The position numbers were made by a program, and so were the translations under genes. The notes below the pieces were generated by a model, which saw only the letters and a list, made by a program, of their open reading frames with translations, ran no database searches and was not told the DNA's origin. A DNA stretch of 23,772 nt, from positions 1 to 23,772 of IMG/VR virus record IMGVR_UViG_3300016484_000447; one strand, written 5' to 3'. How positions within the stretch are numbered: position 1 is the first letter of the stretch; every line of letters starts with the position of its first letter. Origin of the DNA: a virus (Duplodnaviria; Heunggongvirae; Uroviricota; Caudoviricetes). Positions 2,408 through 17,661 of the stretch are shown here, piece after piece.

Positions 2408-2854
2408 TTACGGCATCACCCACAGGTTGAGTTCGGCGTTCGGGTGCTGGGTCTTGAGGATGATGTCCTCGACAACATTCCACTTACCACCGCCGAGGCC
2501 ACAGCCGATGAGAGGAAAGTTGACTGCTGACCCGGTGAGGTGTTCGATGCCCGCCACGAACTCGAAGACCTCGCGCACAGCGTCGTAGTCCACGTACTTC
2601 TTGCCATCGCGCCCGTAGAACTCCTGCGTCACACCGTTGATGACCGTTGTAGTTCCGTCCGTCCAGAACGTGCAAGTCCCGAGTCGCAGCTTGCCAGCTT
2701 GGAAGGCTTTCATGTACTCGACGTAGGCGTCAGGGAACTTCCGCTTGATCGCCAGCGCAACGCCAGACCCCATCACACCCTGCGCATTGCAGCCGTGGAC
2801 GATGATGCCCTTTGCCGAGGTGATGTCACCTCGAACTTCGTTGATCCTGCTCAT
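2408..2854 (-). CDS. Macro-domain protein (ADP-ribose processing; TARG1/DarG-like subgroup)
   Basis: Motifs VRGDIT, IVHGCNAQGVMGSGVA, FPLIGCGLGGGKW; ATGA overlap start at 2854. Confidence 0.85.
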   Translation of the reverse strand: MSRINEVRGDITSAKGIIVHGCNAQGVMGSGVALAIKRKFPDAYVEYMKAFQAGKLRLGTCTFWTDGTTTVINGVTQEFYGRDGKKYVDYDAVREVFEFVAGIEHLTGSAVNFPLIGCGLGGGKWNVVEDIILKTQHPNAELNLWVMP

Positions 2855-3057
2855 TGGCCCTTCCTCTTCAAGTGGATGTCGAACCCAGCCAGGGAATGCC
2901 CACACACGTCGCCACGGAAGTCGAACTGTACTGTCACGGTCGGGACTACTTGTGAGACGACGTACCCTGGGTTCGCTTTTTCAAGCTCTTCCTTCAGGAA
3001 CGCTTCCACTTGAGCCTTGGTCAGCTTGACCATCAGGTTGTTGAACACCAGACTCAT
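2851..3057 (-). CDS. Hypothetical protein (68 aa)
   Basis: Coupled ORF in operon. Confidence 0.65.
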   Translation of the reverse strand: MSLVFNNLMVKLTKAQVEAFLKEELEKANPGYVVSQVVPTVTVQFDFRGDVCGHSLAGFDIHLKRKGQ

Positions 3058-3893: not shown

Positions 3894-4099
3894 CCTCCAC
3901 GGACTCCCATGATCTTCAGAACCATGTCCTCGGCATCTCCGAGGGCAACACGGGCTCTGAAAACGTCTGATGCAGCCTTCATTGCCCTGTTCCCGTTGAC
4001 AGTCTCCTGCGTGAGACGCCTTCCGTCCTCTTCGAGTTCCTGTTGCAACGCGAACAGGGCGCCATTCAGCAACTGAATGCCGTTCAGCCGCTCCTTCAT
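3890..4099 (-). CDS. Hypothetical helical protein (69 aa)
   Basis: Coupled to rtcB stop and to the DUF4031 start. Confidence 0.65.
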   Translation of the reverse strand: MKERLNGIQLLNGALFALQQELEEDGRRLTQETVNGNRAMKAASDVFRARVALGDAEDMVLKIMGVRGG

Positions 4100-5373
4100 C
4101 AGTTTCCCTTCACGCAGAGGACAGCCTTCAGGACGTGAACGACTTCCACCAAGTCCTTCTGAAGCTCCATGACGACATCCAGACGCTTGTAGGCGCCGGG
4201 GATTTCATCCAGCACTGCGGAGTCCTTCCGGCACTCCACGCCATCCGTCTGCTCGATCAGGTCTTGCAGGGAGAACCGGCGCTTCGCTTCAGCCCGGGAC
4301 ATCGCCCGCCCCGCACCGTGCGAACACGAACAGTAGCTGTCGGCGTTGCCCTTGCCACGGACGATGTAGGACTGCTGACCCATCGAGCCAGGGATGATGC
4401 CCATGTCGCCCTCGCGTGCGCGGATTGCGCCCTTGCGCGTCACCCACAGGTTCTGCCCGAAGTGGTTCTCACGGGAGATGTAGTTGTGGTGGCAGTTGAT
4501 GGCTTCACTGGTCACGGTGAACTCCACCGGGACGTGCCGACGCAGAGCCGCCAGGACGACAGTCATCATCTCCTTGCGGTTCTCCAGGGCGTAGTCCTGC
4601 GCCCACTGCACCGCGTCCGTGTACGCCTTGAAGTCGTCGTCGGCTTCCGGGATGAAGGCGAGGTCGCCATCGGGCAGGGTGATGTAGAACATCTCCATCT
4701 TGCGCTTGGCCTTCTCGATGTAGTAGCTGCCGATCATGTTGCCGACGCCACGGGAGCCCGAGTGCAGCATGACCCACACGTCGTCGTTCTCGTCGGTGCA
4801 GAGTTCGATGAAGTGGTTGCCGCTGCCCAGCGTGCCAACTTGGCTGACGCTCTTCTTCAGGAAGGCTTCCTCGTCCTTGAACGGCACCTTGGCGGATTCC
4901 GGGGCGCTCTTGAACAGGTCGCTCCGCGCCGCGATCCAGATGCTTCGCTCCAGGCCATCGACGTTGTGGCTTCCACCAGTGCCCATCGGGATGTCACGCT
5001 CGATTTGCGAGCGGATGGCCTTCAGGTTGTCGGGCAGTTGGTGCGCCTTCAGCGACAGGCGGACGGCGTTCATGCCGCAGCCCAGGTCAACGCCAACGGC
5101 AGAGGGGATGATCGCGTTCGTGGTCGGAACCACGGAACCCACGGTCGCACCCTTGCCCAGATGGGCGTCGGGCATCAGGGCCACGCCCTGCGGAGCGATG
5201 AACGGCAGACGTGCGATGTTCTTGGTCTGTTGCAGCGCCGCGTCTTCCACGTCGATGACCGTCACCTTGTCGTAGTGGTTGACCCCGAACTCGTCTTCGC
5301 GTCGAACTTTGGACTCCTTCGTGCCCAGCCATGCCTTGATGGGCTTTGCGCCCTCTTCGCGGGTGACGATCAT
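4099..5373 (-). CDS. rtcB: RtcB RNA ligase (3'-phosphate/2',3'-cyclic phosphate to 5'-OH, GTP/Mn dependent)
   Basis: MPDAHLGKG, VGVDLGCG, GTLGSGNHF, LHSGSRG, HHNY, IPGSMG, SHGAGR motifs; AAGGAG SD before ATG 5373. Confidence 0.95.
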   Translation of the reverse strand: MIVTREEGAKPIKAWLGTKESKVRREDEFGVNHYDKVTVIDVEDAALQQTKNIARLPFIAPQGVALMPDAHLGKGATVGSVVPTTNAIIPSAVGVDLGCGMNAVRLSLKAHQLPDNLKAIRSQIERDIPMGTGGSHNVDGLERSIWIAARSDLFKSAPESAKVPFKDEEAFLKKSVSQVGTLGSGNHFIELCTDENDDVWVMLHSGSRGVGNMIGSYYIEKAKRKMEMFYITLPDGDLAFIPEADDDFKAYTDAVQWAQDYALENRKEMMTVVLAALRRHVPVEFTVTSEAINCHHNYISRENHFGQNLWVTRKGAIRAREGDMGIIPGSMGQQSYIVRGKGNADSYCSCSHGAGRAMSRAEAKRRFSLQDLIEQTDGVECRKDSAVLDEIPGAYKRLDVVMELQKDLVEVVHVLKAVLCVKGN

Positions 5374-5386
5374 CTTTCTCTCCTTC

Positions 5387-5527
5387 TCAGCGTCTTGAAA
5401 ATCGAACAGCCCACAGTATACCGTAGGCGAGAGCCACGTACATCGCAAGTGGCGCCAAAGCCACACACAGGATGATGACGGCTGGGGCGGGAAGAGCCCG
5501 CCCGCTTCGGCTGAATCTACGGCTCAT
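5387..5527 (-). CDS. Small single-pass membrane protein (46 aa)
   Basis: Hydrophobic core VIILCVALAPLAMYVALAYGILWAV flanked by Arg-rich ends; fills the gap between genes. Confidence 0.5.
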   Translation of the reverse strand: MSRRFSRSGRALPAPAVIILCVALAPLAMYVALAYGILWAVRFSRR

Positions 5528-5959: not shown

Positions 5960-7219
5960 TCAGCCCTTCTTCAGCAGGTAGCTGTTCGAGATGGCCTTGA
6001 AGCTGAAGTCCCGCTTGTTCGACTTGAACACCACACCCTCGCGCTTCACGCCCTTGTTCATGCCAGGGCCTTCGGCGTAGGCCAGGATGCTCTCGACCAT
6101 CGCACGGGCTGACTCTTGCGGAGTCAGGCTGGCATCAGCCTCGTGCCGGAACTCCTTCAGCGACATGCGACGTTCCAGAACTGGCACGTAACTCAGGCAG
6201 GCGAACTCAGTCGCAAGACGTGCAGCAACCGGGCGCAGGTAGGTGCCCTCGGTGATGTTGAACACGTCGAAGACGTGCCACCCGTAGCCGCTGACTTGCT
6301 CGTGGTTCTGCTGGATCGACGGCGCGATCAGTTCCCCTTGGAAGGCGACCGCTTCATCCGGTTGCGCACCCAGGGCGATCTTCTCGATGATGCGGTGTTC
6401 GCGCACGAACTGGCTGAAGTGGTTGTCACCGTCGATGTCCAGTTCGATGTTGCGACTGCACACGCCCGACAGGTACTCAGGCTTCGGTGCAGGCCAGAAC
6501 CGCGACTTGATGGAGTCGATCACCCGACCGAACAGGCCCATCTTCGCACGACGCTTCTCGTCACGCTCCTTCAGGATTTCGGCGTACAGCGGGTTCTCCT
6601 TGCCGATCACGTAGACCGTCATGGAAGAGCCGTCCAGCTTGATCGTGGCCTCGAAGGTTTCTTCGTCATCGACTGTCGGGATCAGGTGGATGTAGTTCTG
6701 CACCCGCTCTTGGTCGGTCTTGCGCAGGAACCACGGGAAGGCACGAGTCTTGCTTGCCTGCGACGGCCCGCCCTTCTCGGACTGTTGCACCTCCAAGGGC
6801 TCCCACTTCTCGACCTTGAGAATGTCGGTCACGTCGTCGCCCTCGTTGTAGAACAGGCCGGGGCCGACAGACGCCTTGAACGGGCTCGTGCTGACTTCCA
6901 CAGTCGTCCCCATCAGTTCGGGGAACTGGCTCGTGGACAGTATCAGGCCCTGCGACAGTTGCTTGCGCAGCTTGATCGTCTTCAGGCGCATCCCGCGCTT
7001 CGTGCCCCAGTTGGTGAAGCGTTCCTCGAAGGAAGCGTACACCGGGTTGCTGGCGTCCAGCCACGAGTCCACCTCGAAGTAGACCACGAGGTCGCCCACG
7101 GCGAATTCGCCCTTCTTGACGACGACAGACCAGCCCAGGACATCGGCGACTTCGATCAGGTCGGCGCCGGGGATCGGGCGCAGGCCCGTGACTCGTTGAA
7201 TGCTTGCGAGTTTACGCAT
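5960..7219 (-). CDS. ATP-dependent RNA ligase, DRB0094/Rnl2-like family with N-terminal OB-type domain
   Basis: MRKLASIQ N-terminus, motif I KLDGSS, FQGEL, FDV, REGVVFK, FKAISNSYLLK. Confidence 0.9.
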   Translation of the reverse strand: MRKLASIQRVTGLRPIPGADLIEVADVLGWSVVVKKGEFAVGDLVVYFEVDSWLDASNPVYASFEERFTNWGTKRGMRLKTIKLRKQLSQGLILSTSQFPELMGTTVEVSTSPFKASVGPGLFYNEGDDVTDILKVEKWEPLEVQQSEKGGPSQASKTRAFPWFLRKTDQERVQNYIHLIPTVDDEETFEATIKLDGSSMTVYVIGKENPLYAEILKERDEKRRAKMGLFGRVIDSIKSRFWPAPKPEYLSGVCSRNIELDIDGDNHFSQFVREHRIIEKIALGAQPDEAVAFQGELIAPSIQQNHEQVSGYGWHVFDVFNITEGTYLRPVAARLATEFACLSYVPVLERRMSLKEFRHEADASLTPQESARAMVESILAYAEGPGMNKGVKREGVVFKSNKRDFSFKAISNSYLLKKG

Positions 7220-13671: not shown

Positions 13672-13701
13672 TTGACATCTGCACATACCGTGTGCTACAG
13701 T
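13672..13701 (+). promoter_or_regulatory. Promoter for tRNA-like RNA
   Basis: TTGACA-N18-TACAGT, TGTGC before -10. Confidence 0.75.
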
Positions 13702-13721: not shown

Positions 13722-13810
13722 GGGTGTTTTCCTGCTGCCGGGCTGTAACCCCGGCGTCGTAAAACAGGTAGGCTGGTAGACGAGAGGTTCGAGTCCTTGA
13801 ACACCCACCA
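13722..13810 (+). ncRNA. Non-canonical tRNA(Tyr)-like RNA lacking a D-arm at the normal position (89 nt)
   Basis: Acceptor GGGTGTT/AACACCC + A-CCA; anticodon arm GCCGGG-CTGTAAC-CCCGGC; TTCGAGT T-loop; only 8-9 nt between acceptor and anticodon stems. Confidence 0.75.
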
Positions 13811-13828
13811 GACACAAGGAGAGAGAGC

Positions 13829-14017
13829 ATGTTCGGTCTTCTCGAAGACATCGCAAAGGCGGCTGTGGCAGTCGTGACCACGCCGGTTGCAGTGGTGGTC
13901 GATACCGCAGAACTGGTCGGCATCAAGCAAGACAGTGGTCGCTGCCACACAGCCGACACCCTCGGTGCGGTGGTCAAGAACCTCGAAAACGCTGCGAACC
14001 CCACGTCCAGGGGTTGA
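13829..14017 (+). CDS. Small Val/Ala-rich protein (62 aa)
   Basis: AAGGAG SD; stop overlaps next -35. Confidence 0.7.
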   Translation: MFGLLEDIAKAAVAVVTTPVAVVVDTAELVGIKQDSGRCHTADTLGAVVKNLENAANPTSRG

Positions 14018-14043
14018 CAGGACAAGGAAGTGTGTGATACACT
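14014..14043 (+). promoter_or_regulatory. Promoter of the tRNA/ncRNA operon
   Basis: TTGACA-N18-TACACT with TGTGA; first tRNA starts 11 nt downstream. Confidence 0.8.
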
Positions 14044-14053
14044 TCCAACACTC

Positions 14054-14129
14054 GCCCTTTTAGCTCAGTTGGTAGAGCAACTGCCTTGTAAGCAGTAGGT
14101 CGTCCGTTCGAGTCGGACAGGGGGCACCA
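14054..14129 (+). tRNA. tRNA-Thr(TGT)
   Basis: Canonical cloverleaf, encoded CCA. Confidence 0.95.
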
Positions 14130-14133
14130 GTCC

Positions 14134-14325
14134 TCATTCGCGTGGGCTTGTAGGTGATAGTGACGAAAGGTGCTTGACTGGTACATCTTGCACTGAGCCA
14201 CCCGTTCGAGTCGGGGAAGAGGCCACTGGCAAGTAGTCACAACGTTCACCGTGACGCACTCAGACGTATTCTGAGCAACGGTAGGTCGTATGTAAGCGTA
14301 GCCTACTACGAGCCCACACGAATGA
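14134..14325 (+). ncRNA. Candidate structured RNA A (192 nt)
   Basis: ~20-bp closing stem 14134-14153/14306-14325; internal T-loop-like hairpin and three further hairpins. Confidence 0.7.
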
Positions 14326-14330
14326 AGATT

Positions 14331-14407
14331 GCCCGGGTGGCGAAATTGGCAGACGCGGACGGTTGAGGGCCGTCTTCTTGCAGGTTCGAGTCCTGCCCTG
14401 GGCACCA
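14331..14407 (+). tRNA. tRNA-Leu(GAG) with short variable loop
   Basis: Cloverleaf, anticodon GAG, 5-nt variable region, CCA. Confidence 0.9.
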
Positions 14408-14652
14408 TGTTCTTTGATAGTCGCTTCGGAATACCGAAAGAGAAACACCGCGAGAGGGGCAGGGGCTAGCACACCTCCCCGAAAGGTGAAAAGTCGGAAT
14501 TCAAAGCAACGGGGACGTTGCTGGCGAAACAGGATCGGAGTTGGCGGAAGGCACCGGGCTGAGTAACCCGGAGAAGCCACCCTTGAACTCTACGACTGAC
14601 GCATTCGCCCGAAGGCAAACGGTAATCCGACCGGAGCGACTTTCAAAGAGCA
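14408..14652 (+). ncRNA. Candidate structured RNA B (245 nt)
   Basis: ~21-bp closing stem 14408-14429/14631-14652; nested helices, GNRA-type loops. Confidence 0.7.
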
Positions 14653-14655
14653 TTT

Positions 14656-14727
14656 GCGGGTTGTCAATGGAGTACGTTTGGCCTTCCAAGCCGAAAGAGG
14701 CAGGTTCGACCCCTGTAGCCCGCTCCA
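14656..14727 (+). tRNA. tRNA-Gly(TCC) with degenerate D-arm
   Basis: GCGGGTT/AGCCCGC acceptor, U73-CCA, TCC anticodon; 72 nt, D-stem barely pairs. Confidence 0.8.
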
Positions 14728-14734
14728 AAGAATT

Positions 14735-15060
14735 TTCGATGTAGCACGGAAGACGCCTGCTAAGGTTGCGGGTAGTCACGGAAGATGCGAAGCACTGCTA
14801 CGGTGCTAGCCCGAAACTACTGAGGATTTGCGGCCCTACTGCACACAGGCCATAAGGTAGAAAAACGAAGTGCCCGCAACGTTATCGAAGGAATACGGAC
14901 GAAAGTGGCCTGAAAAGAACACTAGACGGACTAGCTTCGACATAAAGCGGTAGAGATGCCCGAGCGGTGACAGCGTAAGCTGATAGCGTCGGATCGACAG
15001 GGACAATAACCCGGCAAATCCTGTTCATCTCAGCCAATGACTGTAGGCTATAAAACAGTC
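14735..15060 (+). ncRNA. Candidate structured RNA C (~330 nt) with kissing loop, pseudoknot and repeated ANGGA motifs
   Basis: Helices 14735-40/14884-89, 14765-72/14873-80, 14953-58/15026-31; loop-loop CAGGCCA/TGGCCTG; 3' H-type pseudoknot. Confidence 0.6.
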
Positions 15061-15063
15061 GAT

Positions 15064-15140
15064 GGGTGCGGTAGCTCAACTGGCAGAGCAACGGATTCCA
15101 AATCCGTAGGTTGTAGGTTCGACTCCTACCCCATTCGCCA
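15064..15140 (+). tRNA. tRNA-Trp(CCA) with weak acceptor stem
   Basis: Canonical D, anticodon and T arms; acceptor has 2 G-U pairs, a C-C mismatch and one extra connector base. Confidence 0.8.
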
Positions 15141-15144
15141 GTTC

Positions 15145-15235
15145 TGTCCTGCACGCAGCGCATGTCTCCAAACTAGAGGTTGCCCCGCCTTGAGTGGCCG
15201 GGCAATAGTACAGGCAATGCACGCTGCGGCAGGCA
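15145..15235 (+). ncRNA. Candidate branched hairpin RNA D (~90 nt)
   Basis: CCTGC-ACGCAGCG-CAT pairs with ATG-CA-CGCTGCG-GCAGG; internal TTGCCC/GGGCAA hairpin. Confidence 0.45.
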
Positions 15236-15241
15236 TTTTTT

Positions 15242-15355
15242 AAGCGGTGGCGCAATCTCGTGCCGCTTGCAACTTGCGCCCTAACAGCGGTGCCGTGTAT
15301 CGCGGCCTTGCTAGCTGCGTTGCGGATCAAACGAGATGCGGGAGTGCGGTTGCAC
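15242..15355 (+). ncRNA. Candidate multiply pseudoknotted RNA E (~115 nt)
   Basis: Crossing helices GGCGCAA/TTGCGCC, TCTCGT/ACGAGA, AAGCGGT/GCCGCTT. Confidence 0.5.
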
Positions 15356-15361
15356 CAATGT

Positions 15362-15437
15362 TGGCCGGTAGCTCAGTTGGTAGAGCACAGGGCTTTGATC
15401 CCTGGTGTCCTTGGTTCGAGTCCAAGTCGGTCTGCCA
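15362..15437 (+). tRNA. tRNA-Gln(TTG)
   Basis: Cloverleaf, U1-U72 mismatch, G73, CCA. Confidence 0.9.
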
Positions 15438-15439
15438 GT

Positions 15440-15515
15440 TGCGGGGTAGCTCAGTCGGTAGAGCGCCGGGCTCATAACCCGGATGTCGTCGGTTCGATCC
15501 CGGCCCCCGCAACCA
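15440..15515 (+). tRNA. tRNA-Met(CAT), initiator-like
   Basis: CAT anticodon, three consecutive G-C pairs at the base of the anticodon stem, U1-A72. Confidence 0.9.
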
Positions 15516-15516
15516 C

Positions 15517-15545
15517 TTGACAAGTAGCGCGTATTGTGCTACAAT
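15517..15545 (+). promoter_or_regulatory. Internal promoter of the tRNA operon
   Basis: TTGACA-N17-TACAAT with TGTGC. Confidence 0.85.
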
Positions 15546-15563
15546 TCTCATACGTAAGAAATT

Positions 15564-15640
15564 GCCCTGCTAGCTCAGTTGGTTAGAGCGGATGATTGTC
15601 GATCATCAGGCCAGCGGTTCGAGTCCGCTGCGGGGCGCCA
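15564..15640 (+). tRNA. tRNA-Asp(GTC)
   Basis: Cloverleaf, G73, CCA. Confidence 0.95.
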
Positions 15641-15641
15641 T

Positions 15642-15717
15642 TGCCGGATAACTCAGTTGGTAGAGTAACCGCCCGATAAGCGGTAAGTCCTTGGTTCGAG
15701 TCCGAGTCTGGCAACCA
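15642..15717 (+). tRNA. tRNA-Ile(GAT) with C33
   Basis: Cloverleaf; anticodon loop CC-GAT-AA. Confidence 0.9.
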
Positions 15718-15723
15718 AACAAC

Positions 15724-15799
15724 GTCCTCATAGTTTAATCGGTTAGAACGCTGGACTTTCAATCCGGTAATTCGGGTTCGATCCCCGATGAGGGCTCCA
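15724..15799 (+). tRNA. tRNA-Glu(TTC)
   Basis: Cloverleaf, CT-TTC-AA loop, U discriminator, CCA. Confidence 0.9.
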
Positions 15800-15805
15800 T
15801 TCAGT

Positions 15806-15881
15806 AGTCTTGTAGCTCAGTTGGTAGAGCGGCGCACTGTTAATGCGTTGGTCGCGGGTTCGATCCCTGCCTTGACTGCCA
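15806..15881 (+). tRNA. tRNA-Asn(GTT)
   Basis: Cloverleaf, two U-U mismatches in acceptor stem, CCA. Confidence 0.9.
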
Positions 15882-15890
15882 GAACATATC

Positions 15891-15961
15891 GGGCTGTTAT
15901 CTGGGGAGACTCTAGGCTTTGCAAGCCCGGGGGAAGGGTTCGATTCCCTTACGGTCCACCA
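15891..15961 (+). tRNA. tRNA-Ala(TGC) with miniature D-arm (71 nt)
   Basis: G3-U70 alanine identity pair, A73-CCA, TT-TGC-AA loop, D-arm reduced to TCT-GGGG-AGA. Confidence 0.8.
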
Positions 15962-15963
15962 TT

Positions 15964-16041
15964 CAGTGTGTATTGTCAATCTGGTAGACGGCCGGGCCAG
16001 GAACCCGGAGGTTGTAGGTTCGATTCCTGCCGCACTGACCA
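15964..16041 (+). tRNA. tRNA-Pro(AGG) with A34 and C33
   Basis: C1-G72, A73 proline identity; loop CC-AGG-AA; CCA. Confidence 0.85.
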
Positions 16042-16170: not shown

Positions 16171-17661
16171 ATGAAGGTGAAGCCGAAAGCCGCTCCCAAA
16201 GAGCGCATGGTCTTCGCTCCTTGCAGCCGCAAGCAACAGTTGATCCTGTTGGATGACTCGACAGACATTCTACTCTGCGGCGGCGGTGCTGGGGGCGGGA
16301 AGTCGCATACGTGTCTGACAAAGGCACTCAAGTACATCAATGACCCCGCAGCGCGGGTTCTGATCGTCCGTCGAACCTACCCGATGTTGAAGATTTCGGG
16401 CGGTCTGTGGGACGAGTCGAAGAAAATCTACCGTCACTTCGGCGGCGTGCCGAAGATTCAGAAGCTGACCTGGGAGTTCCCAAACGGGGCAACGATCCAG
16501 TTTGCTGCCATCCCGGATGACCTGTCCGAGTGGCAAGGTCTTCAGGCCACGAACATCCTCGTGGACGAGTCAGCAGAGTTCACGCAGGAAGAGATTCTGT
16601 TCCTTGCCTCGCGTCTTCGTGGCGCGGACTACAAGGGGCACCTGAACGTCACGATGACGTGCAACCCTTCTCGGGACTCCTTCCTGTACGAGTGGGTGAA
16701 ATACTCGCTGGATGAAACCACAGGCGTCCCGAACGAGGGCACCGAGGACATCGTGCGGTACTTCATCAACGTCGGCGGCAAGATTTACTGGTCGTCGGTG
16801 TCGAAGGATGACCTCTGGGAGCGTTACGGTGAGCCTATGGGCCTCATCCGCTACCACGAGGACGAGAAGAAGATCAACTTCCTGCCGATGTCGTTCCGGT
16901 TCATCCCGCTGACGATCTACGACAACCCGATCCTGCTGAAGAACAACCCGCAGTATCTGGCGAACCTGCTTTCGCAGCCTCGCGTCAACCAGTTGCGTTA
17001 CCTGCACGGGTCGTGGACTGCGCGAGCGGAAGGCTCTGGATTCTTCCGGCGAGAGTGGGTGGAGGTCGTTGACCACGCACCGGCAGACTTCACGTACAAC
17101 CGTGTCCGTTCTTGGGACTTTGCGGCGTCGATTCCATCGGAGTCGAACCCGAACCCCGACTGGACGGCTGGCGTCAAGATGTCCCGAGACAAGTTCGGGT
17201 ACTACTACGTCGAGGACGTGAACCGCTTCCGAAAACTGTCAGATGGCGTCATCAAGGAAGTCATCAAGACAGCCGAGAGCGACGGGCTAGACCAGACGGT
17301 CACGATCCCGAAAGACCCTGGTGCTGGCGGAAAGACGGCGAACGCCTTCCAACTGCGCACACTAGCGGAGCATGGTATCACAGCCAAGTCTGTTGTGGTC
17401 AGCGGTCACAGCGGGAAGATTGCCCGCTTCACACCGTTCTGCACGCTGGCAGAAGCTGGGTTTGTCCGCGTCGTGCGTGGAGACTGGAACGAGGCTTGGT
17501 TCACCGAGCTTGAACTGTTCGAGGGTCTTCGGACGCAGAAGGATGACCAAGTTGACGCGACAGCGGACGCCTTCAACACGCTGTCCAAGTCGGTCGTGCT
17601 TCCGACCATCGCAGTACCAAAACTTGAACAAAGTAGCCCGATTCCCACCGTAGGTACTTGA
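16171..17661 (+). CDS. terL: Terminase large subunit (496 aa)
   Basis: Walker A GGAGGGKS, Walker B ILVDES, MTCNP coupling motif, RSWDFA and DDQVDA nuclease motifs; GGAGG SD before ATG 16171. Confidence 0.95.
   Translation: MKVKPKAAPKERMVFAPCSRKQQLILLDDSTDILLCGGGAGGGKSHTCLTKALKYINDPAARVLIVRRTYPMLKISGGLWDESKKIYRHFGGVPKIQKLTWEFPNGATIQFAAIPDDLSEWQGLQATNILVDESAEFTQEEILFLASRLRGADYKGHLNVTMTCNPSRDSFLYEWVKYSLDETTGVPNEGTEDIVRYFINVGGKIYWSSVSKDDLWERYGEPMGLIRYHEDEKKINFLPMSFRFIPLTIYDNPILLKNNPQYLANLLSQPRVNQLRYLHGSWTARAEGSGFFRREWVEVVDHAPADFTYNRVRSWDFAASIPSESNPNPDWTAGVKMSRDKFGYYYVEDVNRFRKLSDGVIKEVIKTAESDGLDQTVTIPKDPGAGGKTANAFQLRTLAEHGITAKSVVVSGHSGKIARFTPFCTLAEAGFVRVVRGDWNEAWFTELELFEGLRTQKDDQVDATADAFNTLSKSVVLPTIAVPKLEQSSPIPTVGT

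Follow-up and report, generated by a model that had tools for sequence, protein, structure and literature searches.

What fills the long intervals between the tRNA genes of a phage tRNA operon, and do these intervals serve as anything other than linkers? The question is raised by a plus-strand operon (13722-16041; 11 standard tRNAs called by ARAGORN together with two non-canonical ones) lying in a stretch of 23,772 nt, which we will refer to as the window and which comprises bases 1-23772 of the complete linear genome (87,772 nt) of an uncultured phage (IMG/VR record IMGVR_UViG_3300016484_000447). The spacers in question measure 201 nt (A), 248 nt (B), 336 nt (C, 14728-15063) and 221 nt (D and E together, 15141-15361); a first-pass annotation of the sequence had read them as a family of structured RNAs released by tRNA processing. 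On balance, comparison with related phages inclines us to the view that they encode at least five independently folding non-coding modules (A, B, C1, C2 and D) under purifying selection, which would be functional elements and not linkers. B is a member of a previously uncatalogued tRNA-trailing RNA family.

The spacers are heterogeneous in their folding. The z-scores of the minimum free energy were -4.7 for A and -5.9 for B, with none of 200 dinucleotide shuffles equally stable, and -1.4 for C and -1.9 for D+E, which show no global excess stability. The ends of A and B join through 21 and 20 pairs, respectively, against a shuffle mean of about 4, and the folding energy of B and of D+E is lower on the plus strand, in favor of an RNA made from the tRNA strand. 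Several statements of the first-pass annotation hold. An open reading frame (ORF) scan found no plausible ORF in the spacers, nor any led by a Shine-Dalgarno sequence; no Rfam 15 family was matched in any of them at the gathering score or at E<=10, also when each spacer was searched alone, in keeping with the remark that none was recognized as a named family; and A and B do abut the flanking tRNAs (0 and 1 nt for A, 0 and 3 nt for B). The description of each block as having paired ends or forming a compact knot stands for A and B and roughly for D, is too simple for C, which consists of modules and not of one knot, and fails for E. The notion that the five blocks make up one RNA family was not borne out, as A, B, C, D and E have no detectable mutual homology and the models for A and B recover their own orthologues only. 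No homologs of the spacers were found in the cultured phages of INPHARED.

Relatives were collected by a terminase-based search of IMG/VR and metagenomes, which yielded about 160 related loci (designated below by L and a number). Spacer sequence is common only to the closest relatives. Amino-acid identity of the large terminase (TerL) is 90% for L003, 89% for L030 and 74% for L004/L005 and L020/L010/L090, and identity at the third codon positions of TerL (63% for L003, 54% for L030, 48% for L004 and 40% for L020) was used as a rough neutral baseline. Wider scans of IMG/VR added to these first relatives only L190, all other hits being chance matches in coding DNA; a metagenome scan gave no additional close relatives, and scans of GTDB genomes gave nothing. 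The modules retain a constant order as tRNAs come and go around them, with A behind tRNA-Thr, B behind tRNA-Leu(GAG), C behind tRNA-Gly (or His) and D ahead of tRNA-Gln.

Five distinct members of the B family were found, namely those of the window, L003, L030 (978-1135), L004 (417-600, the same as in L005) and L190 (3059-3206, on an unrelated phage contig of 104 kb), the last three through a fuzzy search with the most conserved B string followed by a degenerate IMG/VR scan. All five lie on the same strand, 0-9 nt 3' of the CCA of a tRNA in phage tRNA arrays (Leu-GAG in three cases, Glu-UUC and Lys-UUU in one each), and the family is present as a single copy per genome. In the window, B runs from the terminal helix P1 (14408-14429 with 14631-14652, 22 bp) through P2 (UACCG/CGGUA), GAGAAACAC, the P3 hairpin, GUGAAAAGUCGGAAUU (14486-14501), a variable domain of 109 nt and GAAGGCAAA (14611-14619) to P2' and P1'. 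Across the family, P1 spans 7-22 bp; the joint after P2 is GAGAAACAC, or GACAAACAU in L003; P3 is closed by CAC/GUG, or CAU/AUG in L003; the joint after P3, GUGAAAAGUCGGAAYU, leads into a variable domain of 32-109 nt that evolves at or above the neutral rate; and RARGGYAAA stands directly 5' of P2', after which come a short joint and P1'. P2 differs in each of the five members (UACCG/CGGUA, CAUCG/CGAUG, GCCC/GGGC, CACUG/CAGUG and CCC/GGG).

B is thus a fixed multi-helix junction with nearly invariant joints, in which every helix covaries. In the model-fitted alignment, 22 of 27 pairs, among them all 14 of P1, have substitutions in both strands, and 92.4% of the cells are paired, compared with 64% for shuffled partners (0/500 as high) and 33-41% when the partners are slid by 1-3 columns. 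A covariance model (R2) trained on L190, L030 and L004 recovers L003 (E 2e-10) and the window B (E 2e-6, 38.1 bits) at full length, and its application to 78 loci gave no members beyond the five; a second R2 match in the L190 contig (E 0.25) falls in a promoter region and was not accepted as a member. The B core was found neither in the cultured phages of INPHARED nor, by motif, in GTDB genomes. This combination of joints and helices looks like the signature of a specific binding or catalytic pocket, and the invariance of the joints among covarying helices favors functional RNAs over passive linkers. In L004, a further GC-rich element of ~70 nt (600-671) lies 3' of the B-type RNA.

Resemblances of B to known catalytic RNAs were considered and rejected. 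Look-alikes of RNase P RNA segments, noticed by eye, occur after a B hairpin (AAAAGUCGG) and in C2 (ACAAUAACCCGGCAAA), with no match to any RNase P model at E<=10; the P4 pseudoknot of RNase P joins the CR-I and CR-V strands, and UCCGAC, the candidate P4 partner within B, is conserved in none of L003, L004 and L030. B also has AGAAACA, CAC..GUG and AGUC strings in common with the hairpin ribozyme, set in a multi-way junction that lacks the second strand of loop B and matches no model. Since the models fail and the pseudoknot partner is not conserved, both likenesses are put down to coincidence.

The terminal helix of A pairs 14130-14152 with 14307-14329. Its one homolog, at L030:704-894, occupies the same slot between tRNA-Thr and tRNA-Leu(GAG) and was recovered with E 3e-15 by a model (R3) built from the window A alone; no other homolog was found in the R3 search. 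Comparison of the two sequences gives 17 of 53 pairs with substitutions in both strands and a share of paired cells of 93.9% (33-38% in slid controls), the compensation being clearest in the terminal helix and in the hairpin with the invariant CGUAU loop. Besides this loop, GGCAAGUAGUCA and UGACGAAAGGUG are kept, and two conserved G-U pairs indicate a plus-strand RNA. One inner hairpin forms an isolated T-arm-like element (CCCG-UUCGAGU-CGGG), of which three pairs are kept in L030 without covariation.

With its long stem joining the 5' and 3' ends and the T-arm-like hairpin inside, A is reminiscent of the bacterial Y RNA YrlA (RF02553), which is bound by Rsr/Ro60, and RtcB, for which this phage has a gene, is a frequent neighbor of rsr and yrlA in bacteria. 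The T-loop sequence of A is not kept in its sole homolog (UGAGAGU in L030). On the tests applied, A was not taken for a YrlA RNA, as A alone gives no YrlA match at E<=10 and no TROVE/Rsr domain (PF05731) was detected in the complete 87.8-kb phage genome, in a search in which the controls were detected; the YrlA matches that do occur (E 0.6-2.4, far below gathering) fall only on canonical tRNAs. Two loci of more distant relatives, L031 (1349-1486) and L041 (3145-3288), contain another spacer RNA family with a closing helix of ~14 bp, an isolated T-arm (GGGUUCGAUUCCC), conserved ACGAAAUAC and CUAGCAAG, and six compensated pairs; it repeats the design of A with no detectable homology to it.

Along its full length, spacer C shares 82% identity with L003, against 63% at the baseline. 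The 55 mismatches between window and L003 are spread evenly over the three phases (18/18/19) and cluster in two hypervariable hairpin patches; given this lack of 3-nt periodicity, C is not coding. C1, whose core folds into two hairpins (GCACUG/CGGUGC; GGCC/GGCC), perhaps with a pseudoknot, is kept in L003 and occurs alone as a 124-nt spacer between tRNA-Gly and tRNA-Ser in L020, L010 and L090; it is 79% identical to L020, where third positions of TerL are 40% identical. C2, whose long and irregular hairpin has a GNRA loop at its tip, occurs alone in L030, directly after B, and is 87% identical to the L030 sequence (54% at third positions); three phages share a stretch of 36 nt at 100% identity, and covariation is seen in the apical stem (CAGC-GUAA-GCUG, CAGUG-GCAA-CACUG, GAG..CUC). 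As C1 and C2 are each kept alone in relatives, C is to be seen as a string of modules. In D, 8 of 25 pairs are compensated relative to L003. The D hairpin is followed in the window by CAUUUUUU (U6), not called as a terminator by the terminator scan, and the U6 tract is not conserved, L003 having only UUU. Block E lacks homologs both in the relatives and in the rest of its own genome, and is missing at this position in L003; its bases 15268-15357 can close through an acceptor-like stem (GCAACUU/CGGUUGC) followed by A-CCA, so it may be a very degenerate tRNA-shaped RNA. The coordinates of all these features are collected in Table 1.

Table 1. Features of the window discussed in the text (positions in the 23,772-nt window; spacer modules first, followed by the flanking tRNA operon and upstream genes).
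Feature	Position	Strand	Remarks
RNA A	14130-14330	+	201-nt multi-helix RNA, ~21-bp terminal helix, five inner hairpins; z -4.7; one homolog
RNA B	14408-14655	+	z -5.9; five-member family; covariance model R2
C1	14728-14870	+	leader AAGAAUUUUCGAUG, variable hairpin patch 14749-14778, conserved core 14776-14866; kept in relatives
C, middle segment	14871-14948	+	hypervariable hairpin patch 14894-14930; 23 of the 55 window-L003 mismatches
C2	14949-15035	+	~87-nt three-way junction, outer stem GGUAGAGA/UCUCAGCC; kept in L003 and L030
C3	15038-15063	+	hairpin GACUGU-AGGCUAUAAA-ACAGUC directly 5' of tRNA-Trp; GACCGU/ACGGUC in L003, same loop, one compensated pair
RNA D	15141-15242	+	~95-nt irregular long hairpin, internal loops CUCCAAACUAGA and AGUACAGG kept, then CAUUUUUU; homolog L003:1182-1278
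Block E	15243-15361	+	z -1.07; unsupported
Sigma70-type promoter-like site	14014-14043	+	TTGACA-N18-TACACT, TG extended -10; 10/12 matches; 10 nt 5' of tRNA-Thr
tRNA-Thr(UGU)	14054-14129	+	encoded CCA; ARAGORN, Rfam
tRNA-Leu(GAG)	14331-14407	+	77 nt, no long variable arm, encoded CCA; ARAGORN; counterpart in L030 of 86 nt
tRNA-Gly(UCC), non-canonical	14656-14727	+	odd D arm, encoded CCA; sub-threshold Rfam tRNA; not called by ARAGORN
tRNA-Trp(CCA)	15064-15140	+	ARAGORN, Rfam
tRNA-Gln(UUG) and tRNA-Met(CAU)	15362-15515	+	ARAGORN, Rfam; first tRNA 15362-15437
DarG-like macro domain protein	2408-2905	-	upstream of the tRNA operon
RtcB RNA ligase	4099-5466	-	profile matches; context gene
ATP-dependent RNA ligase, DRB0094 (DraRnl) family	5960-7219	-	PF21189 and PF09414; N-terminal OB fold

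If the favored reading of functional modules is right, A, B, C1, C2 and D would be co-transcribed with the tRNAs from host-type promoters. Near-consensus sites of the form TTGACA-N17/18-TACAnT with an extended -10 TG were found by a promoter-motif scan at 13672, 14014 and 15517, and six promoter-like sites were observed where shuffles predict 1.3, in line with the strong sigma70 promoters of the first-pass annotation, here promoter-like by their sequence; the transcript containing A, B, C and D likely starts at the 14014 site. Judging from their position, the maturation enzymes of the neighboring tRNAs would most likely release the modules as stable, discrete RNAs. Endonucleolytic cleavage in the A/U-rich trailer just behind the encoded CCA, combined with exonuclease trimming, would yield the 5' side, and RNase P at the next tRNA, where there is one, the 3' side. 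In A and B, the long terminal helices would join both ends and may shield the excised RNA from exonucleases, and the modules might act on tRNA or RNA metabolism during infection. The RNA-based counter-defense or translation-takeover role that had been proposed for them is speculation.

Several points weigh against this reading. The comparative depth is thin (two sequences each for A and D, three each for C1 and C2, and five for B, of which three come from close relatives), and the pair counts rest on model-fitted alignments, the B alignment having been fitted to the covariance model because MAFFT mis-registers B. Neither E nor C taken as a whole exceeds shuffles in stability. A helix starting right after the CCA could hinder the 3' maturation of the tRNA. 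Furthermore, no tRNA stands 3' of the B element in L190, and RNase P is therefore not the general maker of the 3' end.

The operon itself, which stops just short of the genes for the large terminase (about 16171-17661) and the portal protein, includes several non-canonical tRNAs, as the first-pass annotation had noticed. At the gathering score, the only Rfam matches are to tRNAs. The tRNA-Gly(UCC) that separates B from C matches the Rfam tRNA model at 14656-14724 with 26.6 bits (cut-off 29 bits); its acceptor stem of 7 bp is followed by a discriminator and by an encoded CCA, the last base of which is 14727. It shares 96% identity with L003:387-460, called as tRNA-Gly by ARAGORN, and is regarded as a real tRNA-Gly. 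Part of Variovorax phage V45v66 matches it at 90.5% identity. At 13722-13806 lies a tRNA-Tyr(GUA)-like gene with a perfect 7-bp acceptor stem, A73, CCA, a nearly missing D arm and a TTGACA-N18-TACAGT promoter of its own (13672); Rfam gives only a sub-threshold tRNA-Sec-like match (25.1 bits), and part of the gene matches the tRNA-Tyr of L020 and L008. Other aberrant tRNAs are a tRNA-Ala(UGC) of 71 nt (15891-15961), which fails the Rfam tRNA model, and a tRNA-Pro(AGG) (15964-16041) scoring just 32.9 bits. Between the Tyr-like gene and the promoter of tRNA-Thr, an ORF of 62 amino acids with a good Shine-Dalgarno sequence (13829-14017) has weak matches to the PHROGs of unknown function phrog_38693 and phrog_33676, and is kept in L030. 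In L003, the 208-nt spacer between tRNA-Glu and tRNA-Ala (1768-1975) has at its 3' end a tRNA-Asn(GUU)-like gene that escaped detection, with GACUGUUAAUCAGU as anticodon arm and CUGGUUCGAUUCCAG as T-arm. The bases directly 3' of the encoded CCA are mostly GAAU, AAUU, AAGAAUUU or UGUU in the window, L003, L008, L013, L015, L020 and L031, an A/U-rich trailer signature that would be suitable for 3' end cleavage of the tRNAs by RNase E. Finally, L195 (~5250-5480), an unrelated viral contig met by chance in a motif scan, and L206 contain a promoter, a GC-rich RNA of ~130 nt with GGGCAAGUAGUCAACCGGGGCGGGUGGAGUGACGCACCC and a strong terminator, which looks like a stand-alone small RNA or riboswitch-like element.

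Among the alternatives, the one that survives best takes the spacers for cis-acting processing or insulation cassettes, the terminal helices being entry sites of an RNase III-type double-strand RNase or of RNase E that separate adjacent tRNAs, and the interior functionless; we consider it possible but doubtful. Long helices flanking an excised RNA are familiar from the leader-trailer helices of rRNA operons and from the RNase III sites of the T7 early RNA. With ~21-25 bp in A and 22 bp in B, the helices have sufficient length for RNase III, and they begin at the CCA; tRNA trailers in the clade are A/U-rich (GAAU, AAUU, UGUU), and the rate of change of the B variable domain fits a functionless interior. 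However, three of the five B members have a P1 of just 7-14 bp, less than a canonical RNase III site needs and in this unlike the rRNA and T7 helices; the junction motifs of B, the 36-nt block of C2 and the loops of A would be superfluous for a simple cleavage helix; and most long spacers of related phages have no terminal helix. In addition, the helices of rRNA operons and T7 flank a known functional RNA or mRNA, whereas those of the window enclose conserved RNAs with no function assigned.

A second group of explanations assigns catalysis or tRNA binding to these RNAs. The two RNA ligases of the first-pass annotation were confirmed by profile search as RtcB and a DRB0094-family ligase (TIGR02306 at 152.4 bits, cut-off 151.15); together with the DarG-like macro domain protein they make up an RNA-repair-like gene set, and further minus-strand genes upstream of the operon encode PhoH, a ClpP-like protease and a PagP-like protein. 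Theta ribozymes, described mostly from gut phages of Bacteroidota, are minimal HDV-like double pseudoknots (Kienbeck et al., 2024; PMC10879173); the DRB0094 ligase family is reportedly 140-fold enriched in phages with such tRNA-adjacent ribozymes, and only 4.5% of theta-associated tRNAs encode the CCA (PMC10879173). A and B resemble them in starting 0 nt after a tRNA (0-9 nt for the other B members) and in sharing the genome with a DRB0094-family ligase, and differ in being larger, in their nested topology, the first strand pairing with the last, and in following CCA-encoding tRNAs. The RNAs do not fit HDV-like or theta ribozymes: no HDV-family match was found at E<=10, and the topology is nested and not that of a double pseudoknot.

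Broadly, B-type RNAs, and perhaps A and C1, might constitute a new class of RNA, catalytic or docking onto tRNAs, that is joined to phage tRNA 3' ends; it would either cut itself off the tRNA, its ends being sealed or recycled by RtcB and the DRB0094-family ligase, or grip the tRNA elbow through its invariant junction (T-loop-like UGAAA, UCGGA) for the control of maturation or for protection against host anticodon nucleases; we regard this as quite unlikely. The narrower proposal of an undescribed class of self-cleaving ribozymes, B above all, which would cut at or near the tRNA 3' end, taking the part of the theta ribozymes of gut phages, and pass 2',3'-cyclic phosphate and 5'-OH ends to the two ligases, seems to us improbable. 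The constant position of B behind a tRNA CCA, the covariation of its helices around invariant junction nucleotides, and the presence of RtcB together with a ligase of the TIGR02306 family would all agree with it. Against it stand the lack of any Rfam match at E<=10 to HDV-like, hatchet, hammerhead, twister, pistol or hairpin ribozymes, the pairing of the 5' end of B with its 3' end in a nested fold that is not an HDV-like double pseudoknot, the CCA encoded by the window tRNAs, and the distribution of the ligase: among 10 complete or near-complete relatives, B occurs in two of the four with a DRB0094-family ligase and in none of the six without it, a co-occurrence that is not significant (Fisher p about 0.13, n=10 related genomes) and is confounded by kinship. 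A link between RtcB and B was likewise rejected, since RtcB occurs in the genomes G000, G001 and G004, the last of which has no B, and is not found in G003; its distribution over the four shows no clean association with B.

The remaining alternative, by which the spacers would be decaying remnants (dead tRNA genes, small inverted-repeat mobile elements) or DNA-level signals with no RNA function selected, mainly applies to E and is very improbable as a general account, already disfavored for A, B, C1, C2 and D: the fast turnover of tRNAs in the clade with its several aberrant tRNAs, the likeness of the 5' part of C2 to the acceptor and D region of a class II tRNA, the acceptor-like stem and ACCA at the end of E, and the equal folding energy of A on both strands speak for it, but the conserved blocks are far more similar than neutral sites, pairing is kept through double substitutions and G-U pairs are kept on the plus strand, the terminal repeats differ between orthologues, unlike inverted repeats recognized by a transposase, and there are no copies elsewhere in the genome. 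A mobile element with inverted repeats was rejected on these last two grounds. A role of B and C as sponges for CsrA/RsmA was also rejected, as their counts of GGA and A(N)GGA motifs (8 in B and 8 in C) do not exceed those of composition-matched shuffles (6.5 and 8.1), which argues against it.

Structured RNAs in phage tRNA regions are already known; what is new here is sequence families with architectures of their own. RNAC and RNAD (species 1 and 2) of T4 are stable RNAs from its tRNA region with unknown roles (PMC3014915). Like the window modules, they are small non-coding RNAs of a phage tRNA region, those of T4 being matured with the tRNAs; the phage of the window has no kinship with T4 and at least five modules, and the two sets are told apart on these grounds and not by sequence comparison, RNAC and RNAD not being in Rfam. 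To our knowledge, long closing helices flush with the CCA have not been described as a feature of the T4 RNAs. GOLLD and ROOL are structured RNAs of phages and prophages, of unknown function, often found near tRNA islands (10.1101/2024.12.08.627333; PMC5737381). They measure about 580-800 nt or more (GOLLD, RF02032), against 87-250 nt for the window modules, and identity with either was rejected, there being no Rfam match at the gathering score or at E<=10 and no module reaching 500 nt.

Phage tRNA arrays thus harbor RNAs of mostly unknown function, as exemplified by RNAC and RNAD of T4, GOLLD, ROOL and the theta ribozymes, and this locus adds to them several compact RNAs supported by covariation, of which the B family, with only 148 nt in L190, is of a size that lends itself to direct biochemistry. 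The presence of RtcB, a DRB0094-family ligase and aberrant tRNAs in one phage makes a link of the spacer RNAs to RNA repair and to tRNA-targeting defenses testable. Should the spacers prove to be processing cassettes only, they would still show how dense phage tRNA operons are organized; should B-type RNAs turn out to be catalytic or to dock onto tRNAs, they would add to the tRNA supply of phages that infect Gram-negative hosts a layer based on ribozymes or RNA chaperones.

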